A stretch of DNA of 64,000 nt from an uncultured cyanobacterium (GCA_963744145.1 CAVUSO010000001.1:1248001-1312000); one strand, 5' to 3'; shown: positions 38,565-56,397, counted from the first letter of the stretch. Numbers and translations: made by a program. The notes: a model not told the origin generated them from the letters alone.

Positions 38565-38800
38565 AGGACAGGCAAGATGCCTGTCCCACAACAAAAAAAA
38601 ACTCTTGTGGGACAGGCATCTTGCCTGTCCAATAAATTGATCAACATGACTTTTGCCTTCTTGTCTAATAAAGTTCAGTCAACCGTAGGGGCGAAGCATT
38701 CGGGCGACAACTAATCGGATCAGCCCGTTAACACTATATCCGAATGCTTCGCCCATTCTTTGCCGATATCCCCCAAAATACTCTTAAGTGAACCATATTG
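38565..38800. repeat. REP-like palindromes inside the operon
   Basis: GGACAGGCAAGATGCCTGTCCCACAA...TTGTGGGACAGGCATCTTGCCTGTCC and GTAGGGGCGAAGCATTCGG...CCGAATGCTTCGCCC. Confidence 0.85.
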
Positions 38801-38821
38801 CCCGATAAAGGAGAAAAACTG

Positions 38822-40111
38822 ATGAGTGGTAGTCCAAAACATACCCCAGCAGAGTTAGAAAGACGAAGACAGGAACAGCTAGAAAAAGAACGACAACGTA
38901 AAGCCAAAGAAGAAGCAAGACAAAGAGCAGCAGCAGCAGAGAGAGAAAGACTTCAGCGGTTGGAGACTCTCAGAAACCAGTTAATTGCCCAAGTTCAGGC
39001 GATCGCTTCACAAGTGCAGCAACAACAAAATAATATATATAGTGAGGATGGAACAGCACTCCAGAAACGCTGTCAGAATTTGCGTGATACTCTGGGTCAA
39101 GCCCAAACCGAATCTCAACTCCAGAAGATAGCCCAAGCATCACCTCAGATTGAACAAGATTTGCATAAAGCGGTTAGTCGCAAACGTCGAGATGAGGAGG
39201 AGAAAAAGCGACGGTTAGAATTAGAAAAACAACAGTTTGAACTAGAGGAATTAGAGCGACAAATTTCTCAAATTCCTAAAGCGGATGCAACTAAATTTGA
39301 TGCTAATGGATATGCAACAGTACAGCAAGCAATTGGAACAGTAAAAACCGCGATCGCAAGTAGTAATCCGGAAAGCGTCCGCGCACCCCTAGCTAATGCT
39401 ATAAAAGCATTACAAGATCATACCAATTTAGTAATCCAACATCGAACCGAATGGCTGCAACGTAAAGCTGAAGCGGAACAAGCTATTGGTGAACTTCAAG
39501 CATTTATTGTGGGATTAAGAGCTGATCCAGTAGTGATGCGGTGGCACGGACATACTATAACTGAATTGGAAACTCAAGCACAAACAGCAGTGCAAGCCTT
39601 AGCAGCAGAACAGTTTGAGCAACCCGCCAATATTCTAGCAGTAGCCCAGACGCGAGGACAGCAAATCGTAGAAGAAGCTAATGCCGAGCAAATTAAAGCT
39701 GACCAACGGGATTATATTGCTACCAGTATTGCTCAAACCTTGCAAGACATGGGTTTTATCGTTAGTCCTCCTCAAGCTGAATATGCTGATCATCCAAAAA
39801 CAGCCATGATTTTAAAAGCAGCTACTGCTTCAGGTAAAGGAATTAGTGTCAGTGTTCCAGTAGAAGGTGAAGTCTGGTACGACGTAGATGGATATACCAA
39901 AAGTACCGAAGCAGTTGTTGGTGGTGGTAATGCTGCGGTATGCGATGAAGCGGAACAGGTTTTAACCGATATGCACACTGCTTTAGAGGCAGAATTTGGC
40001 GTTAAAATGGGTGAAATTTCTTGGGAAGGAAAAGACCCTAACCGCAAACCGCGTAAAGCGGATGGACTACCTAATAACGATCAACAGCAGGGTAGAGGAG
40101 GTAATCGATGA
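38822..40111 (+). CDS. Coiled-coil protein with a globular C-terminal domain (unknown function)
   Basis: AAAGGAG SD, MSGSPK start, long Q/E/R-rich heptads, C-terminal LQDMGF...C...FGV; stop overlaps the next ATG. Confidence 0.8.
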   Translation: MSGSPKHTPAELERRRQEQLEKERQRKAKEEARQRAAAAERERLQRLETLRNQLIAQVQAIASQVQQQQNNIYSEDGTALQKRCQNLRDTLGQAQTESQLQKIAQASPQIEQDLHKAVSRKRRDEEEKKRRLELEKQQFELEELERQISQIPKADATKFDANGYATVQQAIGTVKTAIASSNPESVRAPLANAIKALQDHTNLVIQHRTEWLQRKAEAEQAIGELQAFIVGLRADPVVMRWHGHTITELETQAQTAVQALAAEQFEQPANILAVAQTRGQQIVEEANAEQIKADQRDYIATSIAQTLQDMGFIVSPPQAEYADHPKTAMILKAATASGKGISVSVPVEGEVWYDVDGYTKSTEAVVGGGNAAVCDEAEQVLTDMHTALEAEFGVKMGEISWEGKDPNRKPRKADGLPNNDQQQGRGGNR

Positions 40112-42093
40112 ATAGCTCAACTCCCACATCTTCCCGCTGGATTCTCGAATTTGAGAAACAAGTCCATCGCCGTCTGCATATTGTTTTGTATGGTAATATT
40201 CACGACCAGTTTCTCTGGCGCGGTAATTATCAAAATATCCACGAATTTCTCACCGCATACTTTCAAGACTTAAACTTTGAGCTAATTCTTCGGTATGACC
40301 CCATAGATGGGTTTAATTTTGTCAATCCAAAAATGAGACAGGGATTTGATGAATTAGTACGAAGTGGGGTAGCTAAACGGAACCCAGATTTAGGACAAAA
40401 TCCCCCAGTACCTTCACCAGCTCCAAATCCAATGGCACCTCCTCCAAGAGCTAATCCGGGTGCTGTGGGTCCTTCCCTAAATACTAGAGTCTCACCAGAG
40501 GATGCTTTTGGTAATTTGCGAGCTGTCGTATCTCAATCTAAAACTTCAGTAGCTGCAATTGTTGATTTAGGAGATATGCTCACCTCTGATCCAAGTCGCT
40601 ATATTGCTGAAGAGCGAAACGCTTTGGTGTTACTGAATAAATGCACCCTAGAAGCATCTGTGATCAGAGAGGGGGCTTTGAGCGGTTATCGCAATACTTT
40701 GGTGATTTTAGCTAGGGATTTGAAACGGGTGCCAGAGTGGTTTCATCAAAATAATCCCTTTGTCGGGATGGTGCAAATGTCGCGTCCCAATAAAGACGAA
40801 CGATGTCAGTTTATGATGCGTTTTTTCCAGGGATTTTATGAAGGCGATCGCATCAATACTAAACGCTCTTCTCCTCAAGCACCTTCAGAGCTAGAAATTC
40901 TCGCAGAAGAATTTGCTGATCTCACCGAAGGCTTTCGAGCAATGGATTTAGATGCGTTGCGTGCGACTTCTTGGCGTGAGCGCATTCCTCTCCGTGTTAA
41001 AGAAGTCTGGCGGTTAGTGGACTTTTTTAAATTTGGTCTACGGGATGATCCTTGGGAGCAGTTAAGCCCCGAAAAAGTTCGCTCTGCTAGAGAACAACTT
41101 TCTCGCACTGTGATTGGTCAACCTCGTGCAGTTGAATCTGTTACTACTATGCTCACTAGCGCAAGGGTGGGATTGAGCATAAGTAGTAGTGGTCGTAGTG
41201 GCAAACCTAAAGGTATTTTCTTTTTTGTTGGTCCGACAGGAGTTGGCAAAACTGAACTAGCCAAAGCTATGACCAAATTAGTGTTTGGCGATGAGCGATC
41301 GTTTGTCCGTTTTGATATGAGTGAGTACAAAGAAGAACACGCGGCTGAGAAATTAGCAGGCGCTCCTCCCGGTTTTGTGGGTTATGAAGAAGGGGGACAG
41401 CTAACCAATCGCGTGATTGAGCAGCCCTATAGTATTTTGCTGTTTGATGAAATTGAAAAAGCTCATCCCAAGGTGTTAGATAAGTTTTTGCAAATTTTAG
41501 AAGATGGAAGGCTTACTGATGGTAAAGGACAGACTGCTTATTTCAACCAAACTGCAATTATTTTTACTAGCAATATCGGCGCATCGGATTTAACTGATCC
41601 TCAGACAGGTGCGATCGTTCGGTGTGGGATTATGAACAAAGTGCAGCAAGGAAATACTAATGATTTCTCTTACGAAGAGGTAGAAAATCACTTCCGAACT
41701 GAAGTAGATTGGCACTTTACCAGTCGCATTGGTCGGGCGGAACTGCTCAACCGTTTGGGTGATAATATTGTGGTATTTGACTTGCTACGTCCAGATTTTG
41801 TGACTTTAATTGGGCAGAAGTTTTTACGACAACTATCAGATACAGCTCAGGAAAAGTACCGACTCAATTTAAACTTTTTGCCTTCAGTTCTAGATGTTTT
41901 GAGGGTGCGGATGGAACAAGGTAACAATTTACTATTCGGAGGAAGACGGATTAAAACCCTTTTAGAATCATTAGTGGAACGTCCCCTCAATAGTTGGATT
42001 TTTCAAAATTGCCCTGAAACCAGTAAATTAGCAGGGGGCACATTGAGGATTGGGATGACAGTTGATGGATGTTTAGAGGTGACTCATGTTTGA
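40108..42093 (+). CDS. ClpA/B-like AAA+ ATPase with one intact (D2-type) nucleotide-binding domain
   Basis: VIGQ, FFFVGPTGVGKTELAK, RFDMSEY, GAPPGFVGYEEGGQLT, LLFDEIEKAH and DGRLTDGKG motifs; no Walker A in the N-terminal half. Confidence 0.9.
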   Translation: MNSSTPTSSRWILEFEKQVHRRLHIVLYGNIHDQFLWRGNYQNIHEFLTAYFQDLNFELILRYDPIDGFNFVNPKMRQGFDELVRSGVAKRNPDLGQNPPVPSPAPNPMAPPPRANPGAVGPSLNTRVSPEDAFGNLRAVVSQSKTSVAAIVDLGDMLTSDPSRYIAEERNALVLLNKCTLEASVIREGALSGYRNTLVILARDLKRVPEWFHQNNPFVGMVQMSRPNKDERCQFMMRFFQGFYEGDRINTKRSSPQAPSELEILAEEFADLTEGFRAMDLDALRATSWRERIPLRVKEVWRLVDFFKFGLRDDPWEQLSPEKVRSAREQLSRTVIGQPRAVESVTTMLTSARVGLSISSSGRSGKPKGIFFFVGPTGVGKTELAKAMTKLVFGDERSFVRFDMSEYKEEHAAEKLAGAPPGFVGYEEGGQLTNRVIEQPYSILLFDEIEKAHPKVLDKFLQILEDGRLTDGKGQTAYFNQTAIIFTSNIGASDLTDPQTGAIVRCGIMNKVQQGNTNDFSYEEVENHFRTEVDWHFTSRIGRAELLNRLGDNIVVFDLLRPDFVTLIGQKFLRQLSDTAQEKYRLNLNFLPSVLDVLRVRMEQGNNLLFGGRRIKTLLESLVERPLNSWIFQNCPETSKLAGGTLRIGMTVDGCLEVTHV

Positions 42094-43327
42094 TTTGGAA
42101 TTGCTGTGGGATCGACCCGCAAAAATTAGCTCTCAATCGACAACTCATGTGCTGCGATCGCGGATCTATCCTCAATCGGTCGGAAATGCTTTACCTAGCT
42201 TACCCCTACGGATCGCGATCGCTCTCGATACTAGCCAATCAATGCAAGGGGAAAAGCTACAATGTGCTAAGGAAGCTTGCCGTGCGGTTGTTTCTCATTT
42301 ACGTGACACAGATCGCTTATTTCTAGCAGGTTTTTCTACGAGAGTAACACCTTTACTACAATCTCTTACAGGTGGTGCTAATGCTGTTTCATCGGCTAAT
42401 ACAGCGATCGCTAGTTTGCAACCAGAGGGAGTTACTCGCACCGATTTGGCATTAGAATGGATTCAGAATGCCTTACCAAAGGAAACTGGAGTCACAAGAG
42501 TGGGGATTTTGATTACAGATGGTCATGCGACTACTCCCCAAGGTAATCTATTAGATGACGTAACGCCGCTAATTAACCAATCTAGCCAACTGAGTAGTGC
42601 TGGAATTGTGCTGTGTACTGTAGGATTAGGAGATGCAGCTAATTTTAATACAGCTTTTTTAACTGATTTGAGCGACAAGGGAAGGGGTGCGTTTCTCTAT
42701 GCTGACACACCAACTATCCTAAAATCTCTACTCCAAGAAAGACTGGCTGCTTGTCAAGCGATCGCGACGGAAGAAGCTAAACTCCGATTCACTCTAAGTT
42801 CTGGTGTTACCCTCAAAGGTTTTTGTCGTTTCCGTCCCGAATATTTACCTTTGGAAGAAACTGCAAAAAATGAATTAACACTGGGTACGATCGGAACAAA
42901 CTCCCCAACCGATGTATTAATTGACTTAGAAATTCCAGCAAGTGGTTTTGGAGAACCAATGGGTAGTCGAGAAGTAGTTTCAGTCCAGTTAACAGCTAGA
43001 GGAATGACCAACCCGATTACTAAGACAGCAGCGATTACCTATACTAATTCCTACTCAGAAGCGCAAAAAGTTAACGCTGAAGTCAATAACGATCGACTCT
43101 GTTGGGATATTAACGTTTATAGTAATGACCTAACCCGCACTAACGATCCGAAGCGCACAGGAGAATTACTAGATAATATCCAGTTTACAGCTACCCAAGC
43201 CGGACAAGCAAATATTGCGAACCAAGCAGCTCAACAGCTAGATGATCTGAAAAAGACTGGAGTATTGAACCCCCACAAATCAACTGGACTCTTGCGGGAT
43301 TCTCGAAATTTGGGAGGGACAAAATGA
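42086..43327 (+). CDS. von Willebrand factor A domain protein
   Basis: MIDAS DTSQS, ILITDGH and TVGLG motifs. Confidence 0.9.
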   Translation: MFDLELLWDRPAKISSQSTTHVLRSRIYPQSVGNALPSLPLRIAIALDTSQSMQGEKLQCAKEACRAVVSHLRDTDRLFLAGFSTRVTPLLQSLTGGANAVSSANTAIASLQPEGVTRTDLALEWIQNALPKETGVTRVGILITDGHATTPQGNLLDDVTPLINQSSQLSSAGIVLCTVGLGDAANFNTAFLTDLSDKGRGAFLYADTPTILKSLLQERLAACQAIATEEAKLRFTLSSGVTLKGFCRFRPEYLPLEETAKNELTLGTIGTNSPTDVLIDLEIPASGFGEPMGSREVVSVQLTARGMTNPITKTAAITYTNSYSEAQKVNAEVNNDRLCWDINVYSNDLTRTNDPKRTGELLDNIQFTATQAGQANIANQAAQQLDDLKKTGVLNPHKSTGLLRDSRNLGGTK

Positions 43328-43728
43328 ATAGTGGTTTTGGGATCGACCCCATTCCTGGGTTATCTCGACTTACCCCGGATAATGCTAAGTTACTATTATT
43401 AAACGGACCAGCAGCAGCAAGTCGGTTTCCTCTTCATCGAATACGATCGCTGATTGGTCGGAATGATCTACCTTTGATAACAGTAGATATTGATCTAACT
43501 GAATGCGAAATTGGCGATCCAATTGCTATATCTCGTCGTCATGCAGTGATTGAGTGGGTAGAAGGGGAATTACAAATTGTGGATTTGTGCAGTAGGAACG
43601 GTACTTTTGTTGATGGTCAAAAATTGACAGCGATCGCTCCTAATCAACCATCAGCTCCTGTCATTTTAAAAGCGGGAAGTAAGGTAAAACTAGGAAACTT
43701 GGAATTTGAGGTGATCACTCATGGATAA
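43324..43728 (+). CDS. FHA domain protein
   Basis: IGR, ISRRHA and DLCSRNGTFVDG motifs. Confidence 0.93.
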   Translation: MNSGFGIDPIPGLSRLTPDNAKLLLLNGPAAASRFPLHRIRSLIGRNDLPLITVDIDLTECEIGDPIAISRRHAVIEWVEGELQIVDLCSRNGTFVDGQKLTAIAPNQPSAPVILKAGSKVKLGNLEFEVITHG

Positions 43729-44518
43729 GCCGATTGTAAAACTAGCCTACGGTTCCAAAACCGATCCTGGCAAAATTCGTAAAATCAATGAAGATAATCT
43801 TTTATTAGAATCATGGTCAGATGCTTTACTAGCAGTAGTTGCTGATGGAATGGGAGGACATAAAGGAGGAGAGGTAGCAGCCAAAATTGCCGTTGATACT
43901 TTTCGAGAGTTATTAGATCAGCCCTTACCTAAAGAACCTGTTGAACGATACGAACAACTGTTAAAAAAATTTTATGATGCTGATACTGCTATCCGCGAGC
44001 AATCCTCTCAAGAGTTCAGATTGATGGATATGGGAACTACTTTAATGGCAGCGATCGTTACTCCCACAGAATATATTCATCTATATGCTGGTGACTGTCG
44101 TTTATATCACTTCCACCAGGGAGAATTTACTTATATCTCGGCTGATCATTCAGTAGTCAGGATACTGCAAAACTTGGGAAAGATCACCCCAGAAGAAGCA
44201 GCTACTCATCCAATGCGTTCAGTGGTCAACTCCTGTCTAGGTGGTAAGGGAAATACACAATTCTCTGTTGACCCAAAATGGGACGATGAAAAGTTACCTG
44301 TGTTGCGTGAATTATGTCCAGGTGATGTATTACTACTATGCAGCGACGGACTAAATAGCGAAGTAAGTGACAATCAGTTACAAAATTTGGTGCAACAGTC
44401 TGGAAACTCGACCGAAGAACTGACTAAAGCTTGTGCCGAAGCAGCTTTAGAGCATGGTGGTAAAGATAATATTACAGTTATTGCTATTCAGGTACAGGAG
44501 GAAGATCAGCAAAAATAA
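43721..44518 (+). CDS. PP2C/Stp1-type Ser/Thr phosphatase
   Basis: RKINED, VADGMGGH, MGTT, GDCR, CSDGL and GGKDNIT motifs. Confidence 0.95.
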   Translation: MDKPIVKLAYGSKTDPGKIRKINEDNLLLESWSDALLAVVADGMGGHKGGEVAAKIAVDTFRELLDQPLPKEPVERYEQLLKKFYDADTAIREQSSQEFRLMDMGTTLMAAIVTPTEYIHLYAGDCRLYHFHQGEFTYISADHSVVRILQNLGKITPEEAATHPMRSVVNSCLGGKGNTQFSVDPKWDDEKLPVLRELCPGDVLLLCSDGLNSEVSDNQLQNLVQQSGNSTEELTKACAEAALEHGGKDNITVIAIQVQEEDQQK

Positions 44519-44575
44519 GACAAAATTATCAGCAGAAATAGATAGCAAACTTTAACTAATTGGATTGAAAAGTAT

Positions 44576-46000
44576 ATGAACAATGAGCAACTATACCGAC
44601 GAATGTTGGAAGGACAATGGGTCAATGGACAATATCATCTCAAAAAACTCCTGGGAGCAGGAAGTTACGGAGTAGTTTTTCAAGCAGATGAAGTAGTCGG
44701 AAATCGCCTAGTTCGAGAAGTAGCTATTAAACTAATTTCTCCCAATGATGATGATCGCGATCTCCAGCTCCAAGAATTAATTGATGCAGTTAATTTAGAT
44801 CACCCCAATTTAGTGCGATGCTTTACTTCTGGTTTAGTTAAACTCAACGGAGTTGAATTTTTATATTTAGTCATGGAGCTAGCCCAAAAAACTCTCGCTA
44901 AACATTTAGAAAAAAGCTCTTTGTCTGTAGGAGAAGTGCAAAAAATCGTCCAGGAAATTGCTGCTGGATTAGTTTATCTTCATCGTGAACCCCATCCGCG
45001 AGTGCATCGTGATTTGAAACCAGCTAATGTCCTATGGGTAAGCGATCGCTGGAAATTATCAGATTTTGGGTTATTGCGGTCAACTGGTTCTAAGGGTTCA
45101 GCTCGCACCAGTAAAGTTAGGAGAACTGACGGTTATGCTCCCCCAGAAGCTTATCTCGGAGTGGTGGCTCCCACTTGGGATGTGTGGTCATTAGGGGTGA
45201 TCATGGTGGAAATGCTCACGGGACAGCTACCCTTTACAGGAGATACAGAGCAGGAATTGATCGTAAAAGTAATGGACGGAAAACCATCAATCGAATGGTC
45301 AAAAGTCCACCAATCATTCAGAGAGATCATCAAGGGAGCTTTAGAGAAAGAGCGGAAAGACCGATGGACGGCACAAAGGGTGCTGAATACTTTTACCAAA
45401 AAATATCTCCCTCCAACCATCCCATCTATTGTGAGTCCATTTCCTGGGAAAATAGAAATAGGACAGAATCCTTTTACCGCAAAAGGTATCCCTCTATTTG
45501 ACCCAACTCCAAGCATAGTGAGTCAGCCTCCTGTGCAATTGAAGTCAGCAAAAGGGGTAGATTACACTAATTTACAACGCTTACTAGCCGCAGGAAAATG
45601 GAAGGAAGCGGATGAGGAAACAGGCAAAAAAATGTGCGAGGTCATGGGGCGACAAAAAGAAGGTTGGCTAGATGTCGAACATATCGATAATTTTCCCTGT
45701 GAAGACCTTCGCACAATTGATCAACTTTGGGTAAAATCTAGTAACGGTCATTTTGGCTTTTCTGTGCAAAAGCGTATCTATCAAAGTCTCGGTGGAACCC
45801 GGAACTATGATGAGAAAATCTGGGCTGCTTTTGGCGATCGCGTCGGCTGGAGGAAAAATGGAGACTGGATATACTACAGCGACCTCACCTTCTCAACCAA
45901 ATCTCCCGGTGGCCACCTCCCCTTGTGGTGGGGGAAAGGTCCGTGTGTGGTGGTTGGTGCCTCTTCTCTCGCGTCGAGACTTGTAGACTGTAACATATAA
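44576..46000 (+). CDS. Ser/Thr protein kinase-GUN4 domain fusion, copy 1
   Basis: LGAGSYG, VAIK, HRDLKPAN, DFG, APPE; GUN4 motifs WKEADEET, FPCEDLRTIDQLW, SNGHFGFSVQ, GHLP. Confidence 0.93.
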   Translation: MNNEQLYRRMLEGQWVNGQYHLKKLLGAGSYGVVFQADEVVGNRLVREVAIKLISPNDDDRDLQLQELIDAVNLDHPNLVRCFTSGLVKLNGVEFLYLVMELAQKTLAKHLEKSSLSVGEVQKIVQEIAAGLVYLHREPHPRVHRDLKPANVLWVSDRWKLSDFGLLRSTGSKGSARTSKVRRTDGYAPPEAYLGVVAPTWDVWSLGVIMVEMLTGQLPFTGDTEQELIVKVMDGKPSIEWSKVHQSFREIIKGALEKERKDRWTAQRVLNTFTKKYLPPTIPSIVSPFPGKIEIGQNPFTAKGIPLFDPTPSIVSQPPVQLKSAKGVDYTNLQRLLAAGKWKEADEETGKKMCEVMGRQKEGWLDVEHIDNFPCEDLRTIDQLWVKSSNGHFGFSVQKRIYQSLGGTRNYDEKIWAAFGDRVGWRKNGDWIYYSDLTFSTKSPGGHLPLWWGKGPCVVVGASSLASRLVDCNI

Positions 46001-46338
46001 AGCTTACAAAAAATTGTTACATTTTGTAAATACACGATTTCCCACGAAGCCATGCGCCTTCTAGCTTTCCGATACCTGGCACCGACGCCGAGCGAAGTAC
46101 CGACAGTTATTCTGTAGTTTTCTGTAGTATCTGACCCACTACTTCGGGGTTATAACAATTAGCAATGACAAATTTATCAGCCACAGCTAAGATATCTGGA
46201 TTCATTTCCTCAAAATCAGCCCAAGGTAAATTCTTTTCATCTCTTTAATAAGCTCGCGATCGGTGTTGGTGGTGGATGGCGATCGGTGTTTAAAGATTTT
46301 TAATAGGTCGCGATCGGTGTTTCCAATAATCAGTTAAT

Positions 46339-46720
46339 TGTAGGGGCGAAGCATTCGGGCGACAATTAATCGCATAAAACTTTACCCTGAGCGGAGTCGA
46401 AGGGCAGTAATATTATATCCGAATGCTGATGCCGTAGGCATCGCTACGCGAACGCCCTTCTTCGCCGATATCTCCCAAAACATTCTTAATTGAACCGGAT
46501 TGATATATCATTAATTGAACCGGATTTATATATTAATTGAACCGGATTTATATATTAATTGAACCGGGTTTATATATTAATTGAACCGGATTTATATATA
46601 GTTGATCTGTTGGTTGCATAGATGGTGAGGGCAAAGCATTTCGGTAATGGTTTCTTCGTTTCAGCGATAATTTCTTCGCCGAAATGCTTTGCCCCTACAG
46701 GGAACCGAATCGGATTGTGT
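46339..46720. repeat. Composite cassette: REP doublet + 22-25-nt VNTR (5 units) + inverted REP doublet
   Basis: GTAGGGGCGAAGCATTCGG...; (ATTAATTGAACCGGATTTATAT)n; GGGCAAAGCATTTCGG...CCGAAATGCTTTGCCCCTAC. Confidence 0.9.
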
Positions 46721-46920
46721 TTTCTTATATAGATCGATATTAAATATAATAAATGATGTTTTATTGCGATCGCGTTATGTCTTGAATTGGCGGCGATCGC
46801 AGTTAGATAACTAATTAACTGAAACAAGCGATCGCCAATTCCAGTAATCAGAATCTAATCACTATTGTTGGTGGATGGTGATGGCGTTGGCGTGATAATT
46901 TTCATTGACAGTTGAGTTCT

Positions 46921-47185
46921 TTGTAGGGGCGAAGCATTCGGGCGACAATTTATCGCATAAAACCAATAACATTTTATCCGAATGCTTCGCCCTTCTTCGC
47001 CGATATCTCCCAAAACATTCTTAATTGAACCGGGTTTATCTATTAATTGAACCGGATTTATATATAGTTGATCTGTTGGTTTCATGGATGGTGAGGGCAA
47101 AGCATTTCGGTAATGGTTTCTTCGTTTCAACGATAATTTCTTCGCCGAAATGCTTTGCCCCTACAGGGAACCGAATCGGAGTATT
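46921..47185. repeat. Composite REP/VNTR cassette (2 units, no mini-element inserted)
   Basis: Near-identical to 46339-46720. Confidence 0.9.
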
Positions 47186-47375
47186 GTTATATAGATCGAT
47201 ATTAAATATAATAAATGATGTTTAATTGCGATCGCGTTATGTCTTGAATTGGCGGCGATCGCAGTTAGATAAATAATTTTTGTTAAAATTAGAATATTTA
47301 TAGATTTTTGCTTCTTGTAAGTCTATGGATCTATGGGTGTTGATATTTTCGGTTATTCAGGTATATAGTAAAGTT

Positions 47376-47545
47376 AACCATCCGACCTAAACGCATTAAT
47401 ACGAGGGTTTACCATGAGTTTCGACTCACATCGACTCCCAGTGTGCGCTTCCTTCGGTTCCTCCTTTCGACGACCCTCAGAGTAAACGAGCAGGTAAGCG
47501 AACGGGCACACGCAGGTTATGTTTATCCATGTAGGTCGGACTGCG
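47376..47545 (+). ncRNA. Candidate structured non-coding RNA
   Basis: Closed by TCCGACCTA/TAGGTCGGA; internal TGAGT-TTCG-ACTCA hairpin and GTGTGC/GCACAC stem; upstream TTGATA-N18-TATAGT. Confidence 0.45.
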
Positions 47546-47594
47546 ATCGCTCTTAACCGTTTCCTTGAAGTTAACAACAACAAAAACTAAATTT

Positions 47595-47774
47595 ATGGAA
47601 AAAGTTGTATTCAAAACTACTAATAAACAACAACCTACTGACTTTGCTTACTGGCAAAAACAAACGCCTCAAAAACGTTTAGACACTCTCGAACAAATCC
47701 GCCAAGAATATCATCAATATAAATATAATGCTCAACCAAGATTTCAAAGAATTTATACAATTATTAAACGATAA
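47595..47774 (+). CDS. Small protein of the type paired with nucleotidyltransferases (putative antitoxin-like)
   Basis: DFAYWQKQTPQKRLDTLEQIRQEY; overlaps the start of the downstream nucleotidyltransferase remnant. Confidence 0.6.
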   Translation: MEKVVFKTTNKQQPTDFAYWQKQTPQKRLDTLEQIRQEYHQYKYNAQPRFQRIYTIIKR

Positions 47775-47990
47775 TCAGGTTAAATACCTGGTTATTGGTG
47801 GTTATGCTGTGGCAATTCATTAGTTACTTCACCTGATGGAGTAGATTTTCAAACTTGCTATGATTCAAAAATGGAGTTTATTATTGATGAGATGATGATT
47901 AAATTTATCGATCTTGATAATCTCATAAAAAATAAATTAGCATCGGTTAGACTTCAGGATTTGGCAGATTTAGAAAATTTACAGAACTAA
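47728..47990 (+). pseudogene. Internally deleted nucleotidyltransferase (DUF6036-like)
   Basis: MLNQDFKEFIQLLNDNQVKYLVIGGYAVAIH* then, in a shifted frame, GVDFQTCY...LIKNKLASVRLQDLADLENL; the catalytic DxD segment is missing. Confidence 0.7.
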
Positions 47991-48031
47991 TTATTGCACA
48001 ATCAATTTGAATAAATTGAGCGAAAAAGTCT

Positions 48032-49456
48032 ATGAACAATGAGCAACTATGGCGAATGTTAGCAGGAGAATGTGTCAACGGACAATATCACCTCAAAAAA
48101 CTCCTGGGTGTCGGCAGTTACGGCGCAGTTTTTCAAGCAGATGAAGTGGTCGGCGATCGCCTAGTTCGAGAAGTAGCTATTAAGATAATTTCCCCAGATA
48201 ATGATGAAAAAACCCGCGATCGCCAGCTCCAAGAATTGATTGTCGCGGTTAATTTAGATCACCCGAATTTAATCCGTTGTTTTGCTCCAGGGTTAGCTCA
48301 AATTAAAGGATTTGAATTTTTGTATTTGCTAATGGAGTTAGCAGAAGAAACCCTCGCTAAACGTCTAGAAAAAAGTTCTTTGTCATTGGAAGAAGTACAG
48401 AAAATAGTTCAAGAAATAGCTGCCGGATTAGTTTATCTTCATCGTGAACCCCATCCGAAAGTACATCGTGATTTGAAGCCCGCTAATGTACTACGAGTGG
48501 GCGATCGCTGGAAATTATCAGATTTTGGCTTATTGCGCTCAATCGATTCTCAGGGTTCAGCTCGCACTAGTAAAGGTCAGGGAACTAACGGCTATGCTCC
48601 CCCAGAAGCTTATGATGGAGTAGTTGCTCCAGCTTGGGATGTGTGGTCATTAGGAGTAATCATGGTGGAACTGCTCACGGGACAGCTACCCTTTACAGGA
48701 GATACAGAGCAGGAATTGCTCAAAAAAGTAATGGAGGGTAAACCATCAATCGAATGGTCAAAAGTCCACCAATCATTCAGAGAGATGATCAAGGGAGCTT
48801 TAGAGAAAGAGCGGCAAAACCGATGGACGGCAGAAATGGTGCTGAATACTTTTACCAAAAAAGATCTCCCTCCAACTACCCCATCCATTGAGAGTCAGCC
48901 TCCTTTGCAATTGAAGTCAGCAAAAGGAGTAGACTACACTAATTTACAACGCTTACTAGCCGCAGGGAAATGGAAAGAAGCGGATGAGGAAACAAGCAAA
49001 AAAATGTGCGGGGTCATGGGGCGACAAGAAGAAGGTTGGTTAAGAAGCGAAGATATTGATAATTTTCCCTGCGAAGACCTTCGCACAATTGATCAACTTT
49101 GGGTAAAATCTAGTAACGGTCATTTTGGCTTTTCTGTGCAAAAGCGCATCTATCAAAGTCTCGGTGGAACCCGGAACTATGATGAGAAAATTTGGGAAGC
49201 TTTTGGCGATCGCGTTGGCTGGAGGAAAAATGGAGCTTGGATATACTACAGTGACCTCACTTTCTCAACCACTTCTTTGGTGGGCCATATCCCTGGGTTA
49301 CCACTTCTTTGTTTGGAGGGCTATCTCCCTGTTGTATTGGTGGTGAGTGTTTGGATAGGTAAAGAGGTTTTTTGGGTTGTCTCTTCTCTCGCGTCGAGAC
49401 TTGTAGACTCTTCTCCAAGCCAGGCGCATTCTGATTCAGATATCATCCTATTGTAA
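48032..49456 (+). CDS. Ser/Thr protein kinase-GUN4 domain fusion, copy 2
   Basis: Same kinase and GUN4 motifs as copy 1. Confidence 0.93.
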   Translation: MNNEQLWRMLAGECVNGQYHLKKLLGVGSYGAVFQADEVVGDRLVREVAIKIISPDNDEKTRDRQLQELIVAVNLDHPNLIRCFAPGLAQIKGFEFLYLLMELAEETLAKRLEKSSLSLEEVQKIVQEIAAGLVYLHREPHPKVHRDLKPANVLRVGDRWKLSDFGLLRSIDSQGSARTSKGQGTNGYAPPEAYDGVVAPAWDVWSLGVIMVELLTGQLPFTGDTEQELLKKVMEGKPSIEWSKVHQSFREMIKGALEKERQNRWTAEMVLNTFTKKDLPPTTPSIESQPPLQLKSAKGVDYTNLQRLLAAGKWKEADEETSKKMCGVMGRQEEGWLRSEDIDNFPCEDLRTIDQLWVKSSNGHFGFSVQKRIYQSLGGTRNYDEKIWEAFGDRVGWRKNGAWIYYSDLTFSTTSLVGHIPGLPLLCLEGYLPVVLVVSVWIGKEVFWVVSSLASRLVDSSPSQAHSDSDIILL

Positions 49457-49746
49457 TAATACCGTGATCGGTGTTAGGGGTGGATGGTGATCGCAGTTTA
49501 ACGATTTTCAATAATAAGATCGCGATCGGTGTTTCCGGTAATCAAAATCTAATTGCTGTTAGTGGATGGCGATCGCAGGTTGACGATTTTAATAATAAGA
49601 CAATCTTAAATTGAATCAATCTATCATCATAAATTTGGATAATAAATGACATTTAAGCGCGATCGCATTATGTCTTTAATTGCAGGCGATCGCAGTTTAA
49701 CGATTTTCACGGTTGTCGCGATCGGTGTTTCCAATAATCAGTTAAT

Positions 49747-50085
49747 TGTAGGGGCGAAGCATTCGGGCGACAATTAATCGCACAAAACTTTACCCTGAGC
49801 GGAGTCGAAGGGCAGTAACATTATATCCGAATGCTTCGCCCTTCTTCGCCGATATCTCCCAAAACATTCTTAATTGAACCGGATTTATATATCATTAATT
49901 GAACTGGATTTATATATCATTAATTGAACCGGATTTATATATTAATTGAACCGGATTTATATATAGTTGATCTGTTGGTTGCATAGATGGTGAGGGCAAA
50001 GCATTTCGGTAATGGTTTCTTCGTTTCAGCGATAATTTCTTCGCCGAAATGCTTTGCCCCTACAGGGAACCGAATCGGATTGTGT
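49747..50085. repeat. Composite REP/VNTR cassette (4 units)
   Basis: Near-identical to 46339-46720. Confidence 0.9.
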
Positions 50086-50226
50086 TTTCTTATATAGATC
50101 GATATTAAATATAATAAATGATGTTTAATTGCGATCGCATTATGTCTTTAATTGGCGGCGATCGCAGTTAGATAACTAATTATCTGCTAAAATAAGAAAG
50201 AAGTCAACCACTATTAAAGTTCCTCA

Positions 50227-51235
50227 ATGCAAGACAAACCCCGCGCCGACTACGATAGTCCTTGGAAAGAAGCCATTAACAGTTACTTTGAACCTTTCAT
50301 GAATTTTTTCTTTCCGGTCATCCATCAAGAAATCGACTGGACAAAAGGCTATGAAACCTTAGATGCAGACTTACAAGAAGTCGTAAGAGATGCAGAAACG
50401 GGGAATCGTTTAGCCGATAAGCTCGTGAAAGTTTGGTTAAATCATAGCACCCAGGAAATTTTAATCCTGGTGCATATCGAAATCCAAGGAGGAGTAGATC
50501 CGAACTTTGCGAAACGGATGTTTATCTACAATCACCGTTTATTTGACCGATACGATCGAGAAGTGATTAGTTTAGCAGTATTAGGAGATGAGCAAAAATC
50601 CTGGCGTCCCAATAGTTATGGTTATGCAATGTGTGGATTTAGTAGCCAATTGCAGTTTCCCATCGTCAAACTCTTAGACTACCAAGAACAATGGGAGTTG
50701 CTTGAACAAAGCACTAATCCTTTTGCTGTAATTGTCATGGCACATTTAACTGCAAAGGAAACCACCAGAGATCCACAAAGAAGATTACAAGGGAAACTCA
50801 GCATAGTGCGGGGGCTATATGAACGGGGCTATAATAGGGAGGAAATCAAGCGAACTATTTCGGTTAATTGACTGGATGATGGTATTACCAGACCAGCTAG
50901 AACAGGATTTTCGGGTGGAATACAAACGGTTTCAGGAGGAAAATCAAGTGCCATATATCACCAGTATTGAACGTTTAGCGAAAGCAGAAGGTAGAGAAGA
51001 AGGCTTAGAAGAAGGGATCGAACAAGGAATCGAACAAGGAATCGAACGAGGCAGTGTACAAACAGCACAGGAAAATATCATCACAGTGTTGGAGACTAGG
51101 TTTGGAGAAGTACCAGAAATCTTCAGAGAGCGGATTAATCAAATCGAAGATTTAGCCACATTAAGACAACTTCTCATTCGTGGCATTACGATCGCTTCTT
51201 TCGAGGATTTTGAGCAAGAAATCTCTTCAAATTAG
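50227..51235 (+). pseudogene. Rpn-family (PD-(D/E)XK) gene frameshifted near 50848
   Basis: YDSPWKE, ADKLVKV, HIEIQ, RMFIYN, NPFA, then ELFRLIDWMM...PYITSIER...GIEQ repeats in the other frame. Confidence 0.85.
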
Positions 51236-51376
51236 TCACTAGGTTCTAGTTAATTCCCCTATTGGGTTGAGGGGCGATCGCTATTTATCTGCTCTGATAT
51301 AGAGATTTAGATGCGATCGCCTCTTCTCACAAAATACCACCCCGAGACAAATTGAATAAATTGATCGAAAAATCCT

Positions 51377-52699
51377 ATGAACAATGAGCAACTGTGGCGA
51401 ATGTTGACAGGAGAATGTGTCAATGGACAATATCACCTCAAAAAACTCCTGGGCGTCGGCAGTTACGGCGCAGTTTTTCAAGCGGATGAAGTTGTTGGCG
51501 ATCGCTTAATTCGCCAAGTAGCTGTTAAGCTAATTTCTCCAGATGGAGATGATAAAAATCGCGATCGCCAGCTCCAAGAATTAATTACTGCCGTTAATCT
51601 AGATCACCCGAATTTAGTACGCTGCTTTACTTCAGGGTTAGCTGAAATCAAAGGATTTGAATTTTTGTATTTAGTCATGGAGTTAGCAGAAGAAACCCTC
51701 ACCAAAAGTCTTTCAGAAAAAAGCTCTTTGTCTGTGGGAGAAGTGCAAAAAATAGTTGAGGAAATAGCTTCAGCATTGGTTTATCTTCATCATGAACCCG
51801 AGCGGAGAGTACATCGCGATTTGAAACCAGCTAATGTACTAAGAGTAGGCGATCGCTGGAAATTATCAGATTTTAGCTTATTGCGGTCAATCGGTTCTAA
51901 GGGTTCAGCTCGCACCAGTAAAGGTCAGGGAACTAACGGCTATGCTCCTCCAGAAGCTTATGATGGAGTAGTTGCTCCAGCTTGGGATGTGTGGTCATTA
52001 GGAGTAATCATGGTGGAACTGCTCACGGGACAGCCACCCTTTACAGGAGATACAGAGCAGGAATTGATCAAAAAAGTCATGGAGGGTAAACCATCAATCG
52101 AATGGTCAAAAGTCCACCAATCATTCAGAGAGATGATCAAGGGAGCTTTAGAGAAAGAGCGGAAAGACCGATGGACGGCAGAAATGGTGTTGAATACTTT
52201 TAAAGAGCGCCCGACCATATTACCGTCAGCAGATTACCAAAAGTTAGAAAGCTTACTAGCCGCAGGAAAATGGGAAGAAGCTGATCAGGAAACAGCAAAA
52301 AAAATGTGCGCGGTAATGGAGCGAGAAAAAGAAGGTTGGCTAAGACCCGAAGATATTGATAATTTTCCCTGCGAAGACCTTCGCACAATTGATCAACTTT
52401 GGGTACATTATAGCAATGGTCATTTTGGCTTTTCCGTGCAGAAGCGGATCTATCAAAGTCTGGGTGGAACTTGCAACTACGATCAAAACATTTGGACTGC
52501 TCTTGGCGATCGCGTTGGTTGGAGGCAAAATGAACAATGGCTATACTACAATGATCTCACATTCTCAGTCGAAAATTCTCCCGAAGGCCATCTTCCATTG
52601 GGAGTGAGAAAAGCGATTTGGCGCGGTTGTGGTTTTGCAGGTTGGTTTGGTCTTTGTGGCACTTCTCTCGCGTCGAGACTTGGAGATTGTAACATCTAA
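51377..52699 (+). CDS. Ser/Thr protein kinase-GUN4 domain fusion, copy 3
   Basis: Same motifs, but DFG reads DFS and the linker is short. Confidence 0.93.
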   Translation: MNNEQLWRMLTGECVNGQYHLKKLLGVGSYGAVFQADEVVGDRLIRQVAVKLISPDGDDKNRDRQLQELITAVNLDHPNLVRCFTSGLAEIKGFEFLYLVMELAEETLTKSLSEKSSLSVGEVQKIVEEIASALVYLHHEPERRVHRDLKPANVLRVGDRWKLSDFSLLRSIGSKGSARTSKGQGTNGYAPPEAYDGVVAPAWDVWSLGVIMVELLTGQPPFTGDTEQELIKKVMEGKPSIEWSKVHQSFREMIKGALEKERKDRWTAEMVLNTFKERPTILPSADYQKLESLLAAGKWEEADQETAKKMCAVMEREKEGWLRPEDIDNFPCEDLRTIDQLWVHYSNGHFGFSVQKRIYQSLGGTCNYDQNIWTALGDRVGWRQNEQWLYYNDLTFSVENSPEGHLPLGVRKAIWRGCGFAGWFGLCGTSLASRLGDCNI

Positions 52700-52936
52700 G
52701 ACTTTCAGACAATTTTTAGATTTTATGAATACAATATTTTTCACGAAGCCATCTGCTTGATTTCTTTCCGATACCTGAATGATCCACGACTTGGGGGTTA
52801 TAACAATTAGCGATCGCATTTTATCTCTTTGTTAATAAGATTGCGATCGCTGTTTCGGGTAATCAGAATATAATCACTGTTATTGGTGGATGGCGATGGC
52901 GTTGCCGTGATAATTTTCATTGATAGTTCAGTTACT

Positions 52937-53310
52937 TGTAGGGGCGAAGCATTCGGGCGACAATTAATCGCACAAAACTTTACCCTGAGCGTTCCCTGAG
53001 CGGAGTCGAAGGGCGGAGTCGAAGGGCGGAGTCGAAGGGCAGTAATATTATATCCGAATGCTTCGCCCTTCTTCGCCGATATCTCCCAAAACATTCTTAA
53101 TTGAACCGGATTGATATATCATTAATTGAACCGGATTGATATATCATTAATTGAACCGGGTTTATCTATTAATTGAACCGGATTTATATATAGTTGATCT
53201 GTTGGTTTCATCGATGGTGAGGGCAAAGCATTTCGGTAATGGTTTCTTCGTTTGGGCGATAATTTCTTCACCGAAATGCTTTGCCCCTACAGGGAACTGA
53301 ATCGGCTGGT
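52937..53310. repeat. Composite REP/VNTR cassette (4 units) with nested mini-elements
   Basis: Near-identical to the other cassettes; CCCTGAG x2 then GTCGAAGGG x3. Confidence 0.9.
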
Positions 53311-53351
53311 GTTTTCTCCTATAGATCGCTATTAAATTGAATTAATCTATT

Positions 53352-53958
53352 ATGGTTATGCAATGTGTGGATTTAGTAGCCAATTGCAGTTTCCCATCGT
53401 CAAACTCTTAGACTACCAAGAACAATGGGAGTTTTTGGAACAAAGTACCAATCATGAAAGCAGTAATTGTCATGGCACATTTAACAGCAAAGGAAACCAC
53501 CAGAGATCCACAAAGAAGATTACAAGGGAAACTCAGCATAGTGCGGGGACTATATGAACGGGGCTATAATAGGGAGGAAATCAAGCGAACTATTTCGGTT
53601 AATTGACTGGATGATGGTATTACCAGACCAGCTAGAACAGGATTTTCGGGTGGAATACAAACGGTTTCAGGAGGAAAATCAAGTGCCATATATCACCAGT
53701 ATTGAACGTTTAGCCAAAGCAGAAGGTAGAGAAGAAGGCTTAGAAGAAGGGATCGAACAAGGAATCGAACGAGGCAGTGTACAAAATTCACGGGAAAATA
53801 TCATCACGGTGTTGGAGACTAGGTTTGGAGAAGTGCCAGAAATCTTCAGAGAGCGGATTAATCAAATCGAAAATTTAGCCACATTAAGACAACTTCTCAT
53901 TCGTGGCATTACGATCGCTTCTTTCGAGGATTTTGAGCAAGAAATCTCTTCAAATTAG
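53352..53958 (+). pseudogene. 5'-truncated second copy of the Rpn-family gene
   Basis: Near-identical to about 50618-51235, including the same frameshift. Confidence 0.85.
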
Positions 53959-54096
53959 TCACTAGGATCTAGTTAATTCCAATATTGGGTTGAGGAGCGA
54001 TCGCAATTTATCTGCTCTTATATAGAGATTTAGATGCGATCGCCTCTTCTCAAAATACACCCCGATACAAATTGAAGAAATTGAGCGAAAAAGTCT

Positions 54097-55488
54097 ATGC
54101 ACGATCAGCAACTGTGGCGAATCTTAGAAGGAGAATGTGTCAACGGACAATATCATCTCAAAAAACTATTAGGAGTAGGAGGCTTTGGAGGAGTTTTTCA
54201 AGCAGATGAAGTGGTCGGCGATCGCCTAGTTCGAGAAGTAGCTATTAAGCTAATTTCCCCAGATAGTGATGAAAAAAATCGCGATCGCCAGCTCCAAGAA
54301 TTGATTGATGCTGTTAATCTAGATCACCCCAATTTAGTGCGATGCTTTACTTCTGGTTTAGTTGAAATCAAAGGGTTTAAATTTTTGTATTTAGTAATGG
54401 AACTAGCCCAAGAAACCCTGGCTAAACGTCTAGAAAAAAGCTCTTTGTCGGTGGAAGAAGTGCAAAAAATCGTCCAGGAAATCGCTGCTGGATTGGTTTA
54501 TCTTCATCATGAACCCGATCCGAAAGTACATCGCGATTTGAAGCCTGCTAATGTACTAAGAGTAGGCGATCGCTGGAAATTATCAGATTTTGGCTTATTG
54601 CGTTCAATCGGTTCTAAAGGTTCAGCTCGTACCAGTAAAGGTGGGGGAACTTACAGCTATGCTCCCCCAGAAGCTTATGACGGAGTAGTTGCTCCAGCTT
54701 GGGATGTATGGTCATTAGGAGTAATCATGGTGGAAATGCTCACAGGACAGCTACCCTTTACAGGAGATACAGAGCAGGAATTGATCGTAAAAGTAATGGA
54801 GGGTAAACCATCAATCGAATGGTCAAAAGTCCACCAATCATTCAGAGAGATGATCAAGGGAGCTTTAGAGAAAGAGCGGAAAGACCGATGGACAGCAGAA
54901 ATGGTGCTGAATACTTTGACCGGACTAACCCCAACTCGTCCAACAGAAAGCCAGCAGACTGTATCCTTGAAGTCAGCAAAAGGAATAGATTACACTAATT
55001 TACAATGCTTACTAGCCGCAGGGAAATGGGAGGAAGCTGATGAAGAAACATATAAAAAAATGTGCGAGGTCATGGGACGACAAAGAGAAGGTTGGCTAGA
55101 TGTCGAACAGATCGATAATTTTCCTAGTGAAGACCTTCGCACAATTGATCAACTTTGGGTAAAATCTAGTAACGGTCATTTTGGCTTTTCTGTGCAAAAG
55201 CGCATCTATCAAAGTCTGGGTGGAACCCAGAACTATGATCAGACAATTTGGGAAGCTTTTGGCGATCGCATCGGTTGGAGGAAAAATGGATACTGGATAT
55301 CTACCAGTAAACACACCTTCTCAAAGGATTCTCCCGTTGGCCATCTCCCCTCGGCGAGGTGGGGGCGCGATTGGGGTACTATGGTGGCGGCGGCGGCTGT
55401 GTGGGGGTGGCGTTATTTTATCGGGGGGGAAGGGATTTTTGATGGTTTTAAATGTGGGTGGTCTCTTCTCTCGCGTCGAGACTTGTAA
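54097..55488 (+). CDS. Ser/Thr protein kinase-GUN4 domain fusion, copy 4
   Basis: Same motifs; terminates in an alternative frame of the conserved 3' anchor (SLLSRRDL*). Confidence 0.93.
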   Translation: MHDQQLWRILEGECVNGQYHLKKLLGVGGFGGVFQADEVVGDRLVREVAIKLISPDSDEKNRDRQLQELIDAVNLDHPNLVRCFTSGLVEIKGFKFLYLVMELAQETLAKRLEKSSLSVEEVQKIVQEIAAGLVYLHHEPDPKVHRDLKPANVLRVGDRWKLSDFGLLRSIGSKGSARTSKGGGTYSYAPPEAYDGVVAPAWDVWSLGVIMVEMLTGQLPFTGDTEQELIVKVMEGKPSIEWSKVHQSFREMIKGALEKERKDRWTAEMVLNTLTGLTPTRPTESQQTVSLKSAKGIDYTNLQCLLAAGKWEEADEETYKKMCEVMGRQREGWLDVEQIDNFPSEDLRTIDQLWVKSSNGHFGFSVQKRIYQSLGGTQNYDQTIWEAFGDRIGWRKNGYWISTSKHTFSKDSPVGHLPSARWGRDWGTMVAAAAVWGWRYFIGGEGIFDGFKCGWSLLSRRDL

Positions 55489-55493
55489 ACATC

Positions 55494-55692
55494 AAAACAT
55501 TCTTAATTGAACCGGATTTATATATAGTTGATCTGTTGGTTTCATAGATGGTGAGGGCAAAGCATTTCGGTAATGTTTTCTGCCCTTCGACTTCGCCCTT
55601 CGACTTCGCTCAGGGAACACTCAGGGTAAACGTTTGGGCAATAATTTCTTCGCCGAAATGCTTTGCCCCTACAGGGAACTGAATCGGCTGGT
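55494..55692. repeat. Partial REP/VNTR cassette with inverted nested mini-elements
   Basis: One VNTR unit, then a GGGCAAAGCATTTCGG...CCGAAATGCTTTGCCC doublet containing CCCTTCGAC x2 and CTCAGGG x2. Confidence 0.85.
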
Positions 55693-55864
55693 GTTTTCTC
55701 ATGTAGATCGATATTAAATTGAATTAATCTATTATCGTAAATTGGGATAATCAATGATGTTTAAGTGCGATCGCATTATGGTTTTAATTGGAGGCGATCT
55801 CACTTAGATAACTAATTATTTGCTAAAATGAGAAAGAAGTCAAGGTGATCACTGGGTTGTTTCG

Positions 55865-56170: not shown

Positions 56171-56397
56171 GAATATTTTTCTCGTAATTCAGCAAAAACT
56201 TTAGATGCTGGTTCTACAACAGCGGTTTTGTTATTAAAACTTTCTAACCTTTTGACTAATTCCATATCCCAAGCTGTTTCTAGATCATCATCTATCCCTT
56301 CATGTAGAGAATGAATCAAAAAATAGGCAATTTCAGCACGCTCTTTTAGAGAAAGCTGAGAAAGTTCGAGTTTAAGTTTTTCTGCCGTTTCACTCAT
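56167..56397 (-). CDS. Addiction-module antitoxin
   Basis: LSLKERAEIAYFLIHSL...AWDMELVKRL; stop overlaps the toxin start. Confidence 0.88.
   Translation of the reverse strand: MSETAEKLKLELSQLSLKERAEIAYFLIHSLHEGIDDDLETAWDMELVKRLESFNNKTAVVEPASKVFAELREKYS

Follow-up and report, generated by a model that had tools for sequence, protein, structure and literature searches.

A hypervariable G/T-rich cassette closed by an anchor read in three frames at the ends of cyanobacterial genes for GUN4-like domains, and the Y1 transposase gene linked to it

In this article, we describe a stretch of 64,000 nucleotides (nt) from an uncultured cyanobacterium (GCA_963744145.1 CAVUSO010000001.1:1248001-1312000), hereafter the 64-kb window, to which all coordinates refer, and within it four plus-strand open reading frames (ORFs) that each encode a kinase domain (Pkinase) and a GUN4 domain and that end in a short G/T-rich cassette differing from copy to copy. 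The other three paralogs are 79-83% identical to copy 1, in keeping with the close similarity noticed in the original prediction, which had been made from the sequence alone. At the DNA level the four copies align almost perfectly as far as the Pro codon of GH(L/I)P, then fall out of register, and come back into it at TCTT and an 18-mer anchor, CTCTCGCGTCGAGACTTG, which occurs exactly four times in the window (45966, 49386, 52665 and 55468) against 0.02 expected, a count reached in 0 of 100 shuffles. The fixed edges that had been proposed for a hypervariable segment are thus confirmed, and the lengths and hand counts of G+T given for the four segments proved exact. The features are as follows:

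44576..46000, plus strand: kinase-GUN4 paralog 1, 474 amino acids (aa), frame-1 tail SSLASRLVDCNI and stop
45923..45961, plus strand: variable G/T-rich cassette 1, 39 nt, 82% G+T (32/39)
45962..46000, plus strand: anchor block of copy 1, Leu-x-Ser-Arg in all three frames
45983..46040, plus strand: conserved non-coding continuation of copy 1, with GTAG, an imperfect hairpin (TGTAAC...TTACA) and a second inverted repeat
48032..49456, plus strand: kinase-GUN4 paralog 2, 474 aa, frame-1 tail SSLASRLVD
49295..49381, plus strand: variable cassette 2, 87 nt, 75% G+T (distal 51 nt with 42 G+T)
49382..49408, plus strand: anchor block of copy 2, whose likeness to the other copies ends after GACTTGTAGAC
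51377..52699, plus strand: kinase-GUN4 paralog 3, 440 aa, frame-1 tail TSLASRLGDCNI and stop
52598..52660, plus strand: variable cassette 3, 63 nt, 78% G+T (49/63)
52661..52699, plus strand: anchor block of copy 3
54097..55488, plus strand: kinase-GUN4 paralog 4, 463 aa, frame-2 tail SLLSRRDL and stop
55351..55463, plus strand: variable cassette 4, 113 nt, 78% G+T (88/113), with a G7 run, frame-shifting
55464..55490, plus strand: anchor block of copy 4, with a repeat resembling a miniature inverted-repeat transposable element (MITE) directly after it

The G+T fraction of the cassettes is 0.75-0.82, whereas same-length windows upstream in the same genes average 0.49-0.50 and peak at 0.58-0.74, in no gene reaching the value of its cassette. 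Copies 1-3 end in (S/T)SLASRL and so on (in paralog 2 the DNA after the anchor has been replaced, and the ORF therefore continues to 49456), whereas copy 4 reads its anchor in another frame, because its 113-nt insert is not a multiple of 3, and ends in SLLSRRDL. All three readings of the anchor can be found within the window, since an ORF at 45753-45986 ends in LLSRRDL and another at 55181-55510 reads LFSRVETCK. Translated in its three frames, the block TCTCTTCTCTCGCGTCGAGACTTGTAGACTGTAACATATAA gives S-S-L-A-S-R-L-V-D-C-N-I-stop, S-L-L-S-R-R-D-L-stop and L-F-S-R-V-E-T-C-R-L-stop, that is, Leu-x-Ser-Arg in every reading and a stop at most 24 nt from the 18-mer; in copy 1 the staggered stops are TAG at 45984-86 (frame 2), TAA at 45991-93 (frame 3) and TAA at 45998-46000 (frame 1). 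The copy 1 block also contains a hairpin, TCTCG-CGT-CGAGA (45967-45979), and the region that follows (45983-46040) has the appearance of a repetitive extragenic palindrome (REP), its pairing being without covariation support. RNAalifold, applied to 100 of 112 anchor regions (one too short, one duplicate and ten with a replaced downstream part were left out), retains only the invariant 5-bp hairpin and so speaks against a conserved RNA structure, the second hairpin after the anchor being broken in many sequences and without covariation; a known RNA family was likewise rejected, since an Rfam search of 44000-56500 at E<=1 gave one chance microRNA hit.

The original prediction had pointed to related genomes as a place to look for the anchor, and a scan for the exact 18-mer, with one genome per species, found at least 121 loci (labelled L001 and so on) where about 17 hits would be expected by chance (arithmetic for 596 Gb, both strands). 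In no fewer than 107 of them, which contain 108 anchors, a GUN4-like (G/A)(H/Q)LP site precedes the anchor at a distance of 35-279 nt (median 66). The other 14 of the 121 listed loci comprise four that are non-cyanobacterial and lack conserved flanks, four with a degraded or truncated GUN4 context, one broken by a contig end, and five anchors without an upstream GUN4 domain (L051, L073, L078, L093 and L121), at which the conserved downstream part is present, mostly without a G/T-rich tract. Similarity searches with the whole protein led to homologs in Microcystis, Planktothrix, Nostoc, Dolichospermum, Microcoleus and other genera, which have the same layout of GHLP, a variable-length stretch rich in W, G, V, F and C, and one of three endings, SSLASRLV(D/K)CNI, SLLSRRDL or LFSRVETC(K/R)(L/M), which are the three translations of one DNA sequence; the GUN4-like module occurs in fusions with kinase, caspase, TIR, CHAT or NACHT-type parts. 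Among plasmids, five records matched the anchor region, each match falling at the end of a large GUN4, CHAT or WD40 protein. Two single loci may be mentioned beside these: on the same contig, outside the window, lies a more distant fifth kinase-GUN4 paralog (P0024; 477 aa, 50% identical) with the decayed tail GHFP...SSFLFSKL, and in Planktothrix sp. PCC 11201 (L068:2001-2174) two anchors stand 156 nt apart in one gene, the first being read through in frame 3 into a linker that a second G/T tract and anchor follow. Full-text queries of one literature library returned no paper that describes these tails or links GUN4 with IS200, RAYT (REP-associated tyrosine transposase) or HUH enzymes, the sole match to a tail peptide being an entry in a list of very small annotated proteins (PMC9529120).

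All frames are in use: insert length modulo 3 is distributed 33/35/44 over the 108 listed scan anchors and the window's four, and a sample drawn by protein similarity only, with 173 GUN4-like ends in 120 listed proteins, falls into 35/36/62 by tail class, the 40 ends left unclassed by the patterns being mostly recognisable variants by eye. In an alignment of 67 distinct translations of GUN4 domain plus tail, with the three frames mixed, the tail Arg is invariant (67/67) and its Leu and Ser are at least 90% conserved, only 11 other columns being invariant. The bases on either side of the 18-mer, TCTCTT ahead of it and TA(A/G)A.TGTAACAT.TAA behind it, are similarly conserved in all three frame classes, including genes whose stop codon precedes that DNA, and therefore this conservation is not explained by the frame that a gene presently uses. 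Moreover, L054 reads LFSRVETCKL and L070 reads SLLSRRDL with flanks that are 88 and 95% identical, and L046/L079 and L036/L069 likewise differ in frame, which indicates, for homologous loci of sister species, that a lineage passes through all frames over time. Such passage would place all three readings under selection, and the block has presumably been kept because lineages go through all three frames.

The place of the cassette in the protein can be judged from the GUN4 fold. All four proteins match Pfam PF05419 with 147-154 bits (cut-off 29.2), and the matches end at profile positions 124-129 of 141, leaving the C-terminal part (approximately 126-141, alpha7/alpha8) uncovered; alignment to the structures 1Y6I and 1Z3X extends no further than GHLPL (residues 205-209 in the GUN4 of Synechocystis, SynGUN4), after which SynGUN4 has LNQLRG and thus five residues (LLNQL) between Pro208 and Arg214. 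According to Verdecia et al. (2005; PMC1084334), two residues of the alpha6/alpha7 loop, Pro208 and Leu210, reach into the 'greasy palm'; the porphyrin of their model lies over Leu210, and its carboxylates are taken by Arg214 and Arg217. By homology, the insert sits between Pro208 and Arg214 (SynGUN4 numbering) and expands the loop over the porphyrin pocket, which bears on the question, raised in the original prediction, of whether the loop lines that pocket, and the tail Arg becomes a candidate equivalent of the carboxylate-binding Arg214. An AlphaFold model of the copy 1 domain (mean predicted local distance difference test, pLDDT, 89.3) has the hand-shaped helical GUN4 fold, with a loop at 138-144 below 50 and a tail helix at 142-155, and Foldseek matches it to 1z3x, 1z3y, 4xkc and 1y6i (E 2e-9 to 7e-8; TMq 0.79-0.85; 149-162 columns). 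The module shares with bona fide GUN4, the Mg-chelatase cofactor of 1Y6I and 1Z3X, its core fold, the conserved GHLP and an Arg after it, but differs in having 13 to about 90 variable residues where the cofactor has five, and in belonging to fusion proteins with signalling or effector parts.

Among 2705 insert codons there are 6 in-frame stops, against 114 and 140 in the two other frames and approximately 140 expected from base composition (arithmetic), and this roughly 20-fold depletion identifies the inserts as translated. It also bears on the explanation that there is no function at all, the domain being truncated after GHLP and the ORF simply reading through a junk spacer into a conserved REP or terminator region; the frame-dependence of the tail peptide, the low confidence with which the copy 4 loop and tail are modelled, and the early in-frame stops in three inserts (L016, L048 and L094) would agree with this, yet the depletion of stops, the Arg present in every aligned tail and the frame-1 tail modelled as a confident helix that completes the GUN4 fold make it quite improbable. 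At L016, a Nostoc locus (1890-2018), TGA and TAG stand in frame directly after AHLPGG, and the 109-nt tract behind these stops is the most telomere-like G/T run of the set, followed by an intact transposase gene of the Y1 family described below.

The composition of the inserts (A.17, C.12, G.40, T.31) is flat over codon positions and alike in all four quarters of their length, and it extends to synonymous choices, GGG making up 46% of Gly codons against 19% in the flanks and AGG 78% of AGR codons against 34%. A bias that is flat by codon position and present at synonymous sites does not come from residue selection in one stable frame, and the G/T bias reported earlier is thus a property of the DNA. 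The accompanying argument, that low A content minimises stop codons, turned out to be a weak reason, since the inserts, read off frame, have stops at 4.3 and 5.3% of codons, little different from the 5.1 and 7.7% of normal flanking DNA. Short repeats are in excess within inserts (139 repeated 8-mers against 72.6 +/- 11.6 in shuffles; 280 repeated 7-mers against 171 +/- 15), as are T runs and G runs relative to mononucleotide shuffles. A role of G-quadruplexes was rejected, the canonical motif occurring in 13 of 108 inserts against 15.2 +/- 2.9 after shuffling, and other G/T-rich spots of the window (12765-12825, 21105-21145 and 34994-35062) are unrelated.

How quickly the inserts change was followed in related loci, a comparison that the original prediction had also proposed. 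At least 80% identity over the 150 nt upstream was found in 160 pairs, of which 8 have inserts that are 81-100% identical and 152 have inserts that are at most 66% identical, the latter being the level of unrelated G/T-rich strings under the same scoring. In 49 pairs with long alignable flanks on both sides, with insert alignability judged by eye, two have identical inserts (L001/L024, flanks 95 and 96%; L074/L076, flanks 94 and 94%), one consists of two anchors of one locus, and the other 46 differ in length and cannot be aligned; L054/L070, L046/L079 and L036/L069, for example, have flanks 88-95% identical over 0.9-2 kb together with unalignable inserts. Where inserts can be aligned, the differences consist of altered poly-G lengths, small indels and changes of single bases, and homopolymer lengths vary between close relatives (L046/L092, G7 versus G4; L017/L105). 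The cassette thus changes faster than its surroundings, often wholesale, and yet is stably inherited between close species, which fits a saltatory turnover on the timescale of species divergence, an evolutionary process seen here between species. Inserts are identical in some sister species and unalignable in others despite flanks about 90% identical.

No common template lies behind the inserts: between-insert k-mers are at chance for k = 9 to 14 (a common 12-mer in 31 insert pairs against 32.7 +/- 6.7 shuffled), and a scan of both strands of the window for the four inserts found no template differing at adenines only, the best candidates being A-rich runs that, over 43 nt, still have five or more mismatches not involving A. 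In its hairpin and its fixed 3' position the anchor does recall the initiation of mutagenic homing (IMH) region of diversity-generating retroelements (DGRs), and the likeness extends to the localised hypervariation in the C-terminal, ligand-binding part of kinase, caspase or TIR fusions. DGRs that diversify the C-terminal domains of fusion proteins with kinase and caspase parts are described from cyanobacteria in PMC7517822, and relatives combining kinase and FGE-sulfatase domains do occur among the homologs here (P0107, P0108 and P0113). However, an ordinary DGR served by a template repeat and a reverse transcriptase at some other place in the genome is very unlikely, in agreement with the original prediction: the variable regions are neither constant in length nor mutually alignable (35-279 nt, with no common k-mers beyond chance) and have no adenine-specific pattern, the domain has the GUN4 fold rather than that of a C-type lectin, the change is seen between species, and no reverse transcriptase (RVT family) was found among 49 scanned window ORFs.

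In the process first proposed for these cassettes, a trans-acting polymerase or terminal transferase would add nucleotides at a defined site, with a poor template or none, as happens in variable-(diversity)-joining, V(D)J, recombination. The boundaries sharp on both sides, the G/T bias equal at all codon positions, the chance-level k-mers between inserts and the telomere-like tract retained by L016 behind its in-frame stop would all suit such an enzyme, but we regard it as improbable, because inserts identical in sister species are at odds with ongoing addition and agree with stable inheritance, and because alignable pairs record intermediate states, with ordinary point changes and poly-G slippage, alongside the excess of internal short repeats. 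Furthermore, no polymerase, primase or reverse transcriptase was found among the 49 scanned ORFs, the original prediction having likewise noted neither a reverse transcriptase nor a polymerase in the window, and we know of no enzyme with a G/T preference. The comparison with V(D)J joining (complementarity-determining region 3, CDR3) is an analogy only, resting on a binding-site loop that varies in length while its flanks are fixed, and it extends neither to recombination signals nor to a RAG-like or terminal-transferase-like (TdT-like) enzyme nor to somatic variation. What stands of the earlier interpretation is accordingly the localised, non-DGR cassette between two fixed points; ongoing addition is not supported, and the frame shift of copy 4, the use of the anchor in three frames, the spread through cyanobacteria and the linked transposase gene had no part in it.

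The best-supported reading, to which we would give about even chances, is that of a frameshift-tolerant hypervariable pocket loop. The four cassettes would be local copies of a cyanobacteria-wide module with a GUN4-like tetrapyrrole-pocket domain, in which the stretch from Pro208 to Arg214 is replaced by translated G/T-rich filler of variable length and quick turnover; an approximately 40-nt block whose nucleotide sequence is conserved would close the filler by supplying a hydrophobic residue-x-Ser-Arg and a stop in every frame, such that filler indels of any length still yield a complete protein, while G/T-rich DNA would give mostly Gly, Val, Trp, Phe, Leu and Cys in whichever frame it is read. 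Variation would arise through slippage in G and T runs, short duplications and whole-segment replacement over the timescale of species divergence, and the variable loop may tune the ligand specificity of the sensor. In this, the cassette resembles simple-sequence contingency loci, in which coding poly-G and poly-T runs change length and shift the frame, but here there is no ON/OFF switch, since every frame is made productive by the anchor, and the tract is a complex G/T mix.

Several observations weigh against this frameshift-tolerant loop. Slippage alone does not account for the dominance of G and T over other low-complexity mixes, and 7 of 108 inserts have less than 50% G+T. The copy 4 model, with its 37-residue insert and frame-2 tail, has pLDDT below 50 for residues 135-169 and a tail of one helical turn only, which leaves a structural equivalence of the three tails conjectural. 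Because tandem paralogs with similar flanks exist, as in the window, the orthology of the compared pairs is not proven, and part of the apparent replacement may be a mix-up of paralogs. Since the scan selects exact anchors, conservation inside the 18-mer is circular, and non-exact anchors numbered only four, too few to judge synonymous variation by frame. Finally, the explanation has no role for the transposase gene that lies beside many of the anchors.

Conservation runs more than 100 nt past the stop codons, in part over the 3' end of a convergently oriented gene whose product, of about 255-300 aa, contains readable NHVH and YIHANP motifs. Examples from L064, L054 and L039 match Pfam Y1_Tnp (PF01797) with 67-73 bits (cut-off 23; E 1.6e-18 to 3.5e-20), while the best NCBIfam model is REP-associated tyrosine transposase (REP_Tyr_transpos) at 69 bits, below its cut-off of 80, the IS200 model giving 25 bits against a cut-off of 55. 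By tblastn, the gene or a remnant lies at 27 of the 112 anchors (listed scan loci plus window), always convergent and ending 95-184 nt after the start of the anchor, with no other position or orientation; among anchors with at least 1 kb of downstream sequence it is found at 20 of 68, seven of these full length, and its last codons can be recognised after 42 of the 112. Next to complete or partial copies lie genes whose N-terminal parts are of kinase, caspase, TIR or NACHT-like type. On cyanobacterial plasmids, a search from the transposase side found all three intact copies tail-to-tail with a variable-tailed gene of GUN4-like ending, a fourth with an ISL3 element between it and the neighbouring gene, and a fifth that is partial, and a transposase adjoins two of the five plasmid records matched by the anchor region. 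The protein is 68-86% identical across cyanobacterial genera among the best 120 of 803 hits. The window itself has one such feature:

46110..46229, minus strand: remnant (last 40 codons) of the convergent RAYT-like Y1/HUH gene, tblastn E 1.3e-5, 42% identity, matching residues 220-259 of the L064 protein and without the HUH and Tyr motifs

Between the anchor and the transposase stop come GTA(G/A) and an imperfect hairpin, its pairing often broken and without covariation, an arrangement that recalls the tagged REPs described in PMC3733652. For transposases of this kind, the analysis of Bertels et al. (2017; PMC5581495) includes a slow-evolving RAYT group common in cyanobacteria and flanked by 16-mers at about 14 copies per genome, and by our reading of the motifs the present proteins seem closest to subclass 2.1 among those listed by Quentin et al. 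(2018; PMC6006769). With REP/RAYT systems the module shares a slowly evolving low-copy Y1/HUH gene (PF01797) accompanied by a short conserved hairpin sequence with a GTA(G/A) tag that recurs many times elsewhere in the genome. Here, in contrast, the recurring sequence lies inside and just after the 3' ends of genes that belong to one domain family, with translation in all three frames, and it flanks the transposase gene on the 3' side only: no REPIN doublets or inverted anchor copy were seen beyond the gene, and nothing is conserved past its start codon (5-6 loci). In Dolichospermum/Anabaena-type Nostocales (L005, L007, L020, L021, L025, L030, L040, L042 and others), a repeat (…AAGTCTGAATCAGGATA.CCAGGATT.AAGGAT…) takes the place of the transposase remnant at +60 to +140 after the anchor.

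It is possible, though we think it rather unlikely, that this enzyme drives the diversification, the anchor hairpin and the GTA(G/A)-tagged hairpin being the cis site of a domesticated, tail-to-tail RAYT-like Y1/HUH enzyme. Nicking of single-stranded DNA could conceivably cause local breaks whose repair rewrites the filler, or could leave the coding strand single-stranded and exposed to C-to-T and A-to-G deamination, from which it would acquire its G/T bias. The fixed distance and orientation of the gene, the family matches, the tail-to-tail plasmid copies beside neighbours with diverse N-terminal parts, the conservation of the protein across genera, the remnant in the window, and the pair L054/L070, in which adjoining intact copies go with wholly different inserts, can all be cited for it. 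However, 85 of the 112 anchors have no transposase recognisable by tblastn and the window has a 40-codon remnant only, conservation is confined to one side of the gene, the five GUN4-less anchors mostly lack a G/T tract, the NCBIfam score is below cut-off, and no biochemical step has been demonstrated, the known Y1 enzymes of the IS200/IS605 family cutting and rejoining precisely. The enzyme may drive turnover or may merely travel with the cassette on duplication. Were it the driver, the GUN4-end module and its tail-to-tail partner could form a new kind of targeted diversity generator, a tentative idea that we likewise hold to be rather unlikely, in which a domesticated transposase acting on anchor hairpins would destabilise or rewrite the loop tract of immune-like sensors, the three-frame anchor having evolved so that every outcome is productive.

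Upstream of the four paralogs lies the following group of genes:

38798..44518, plus strand (as copy 1): a 437-aa ORF, AAA_2 ATPase, vWA, FHA and PP2C phosphatase

This context fits sensors of signalling or conflict-type systems, and GUN4 is among the domains of cyanobacterial conflict systems in the survey of Kaur et al. (2020; PMC7159879). The 2-kb gap after copy 1 is filled by the MITE-like repeat and a tandemly repeated unit (ATTAATTGAACCGGATTTATAT, about 22 nt), with repeat sites at 46440-46640, 46990-47100 and 55489-55560. Between the kinase paralogs, at 50227-51235 and 53363-53958, are two copies (one truncated or frameshifted) of one ORF that is part of the tandem unit and has no Pfam or NCBIfam hit; it may resemble Rpn/DUF4351-type nuclease-like proteins. 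A ParE toxin and antitoxin pair (55865-56397, minus strand) stands directly behind the fourth paralog. Further upstream, a molybdopterin oxidoreductase is seemingly split into Molydop_binding (27929-28465, minus) and Molybdopterin/Fe4S4 (32293-34191, minus) parts, and the approximately 3.8 kb between the halves hold a TnpB gene (OrfB_IS605 and Cas12f TNB, 28643-29947, minus) and a DUF4277 ORF (30243-31889, plus).

If the frameshift-tolerant loop is the correct reading, cyanobacteria would possess a coding device that tolerates frameshifts by design and lets a binding-pocket loop vary freely in length, and the GUN4-like domains in the kinase, caspase, TIR and NACHT proteins of multicellular cyanobacteria would be sensors with a diversified pocket, standing alongside the DGR-diversified lectin domains. 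The conserved and slowly evolving Y1 transposase family would at the same time gain a testable partner and site, and, should the less probable diversity generator prove true, the RAYT-like genes of cyanobacteria would have a host function in a form of diversification that proceeds without a reverse transcriptase.

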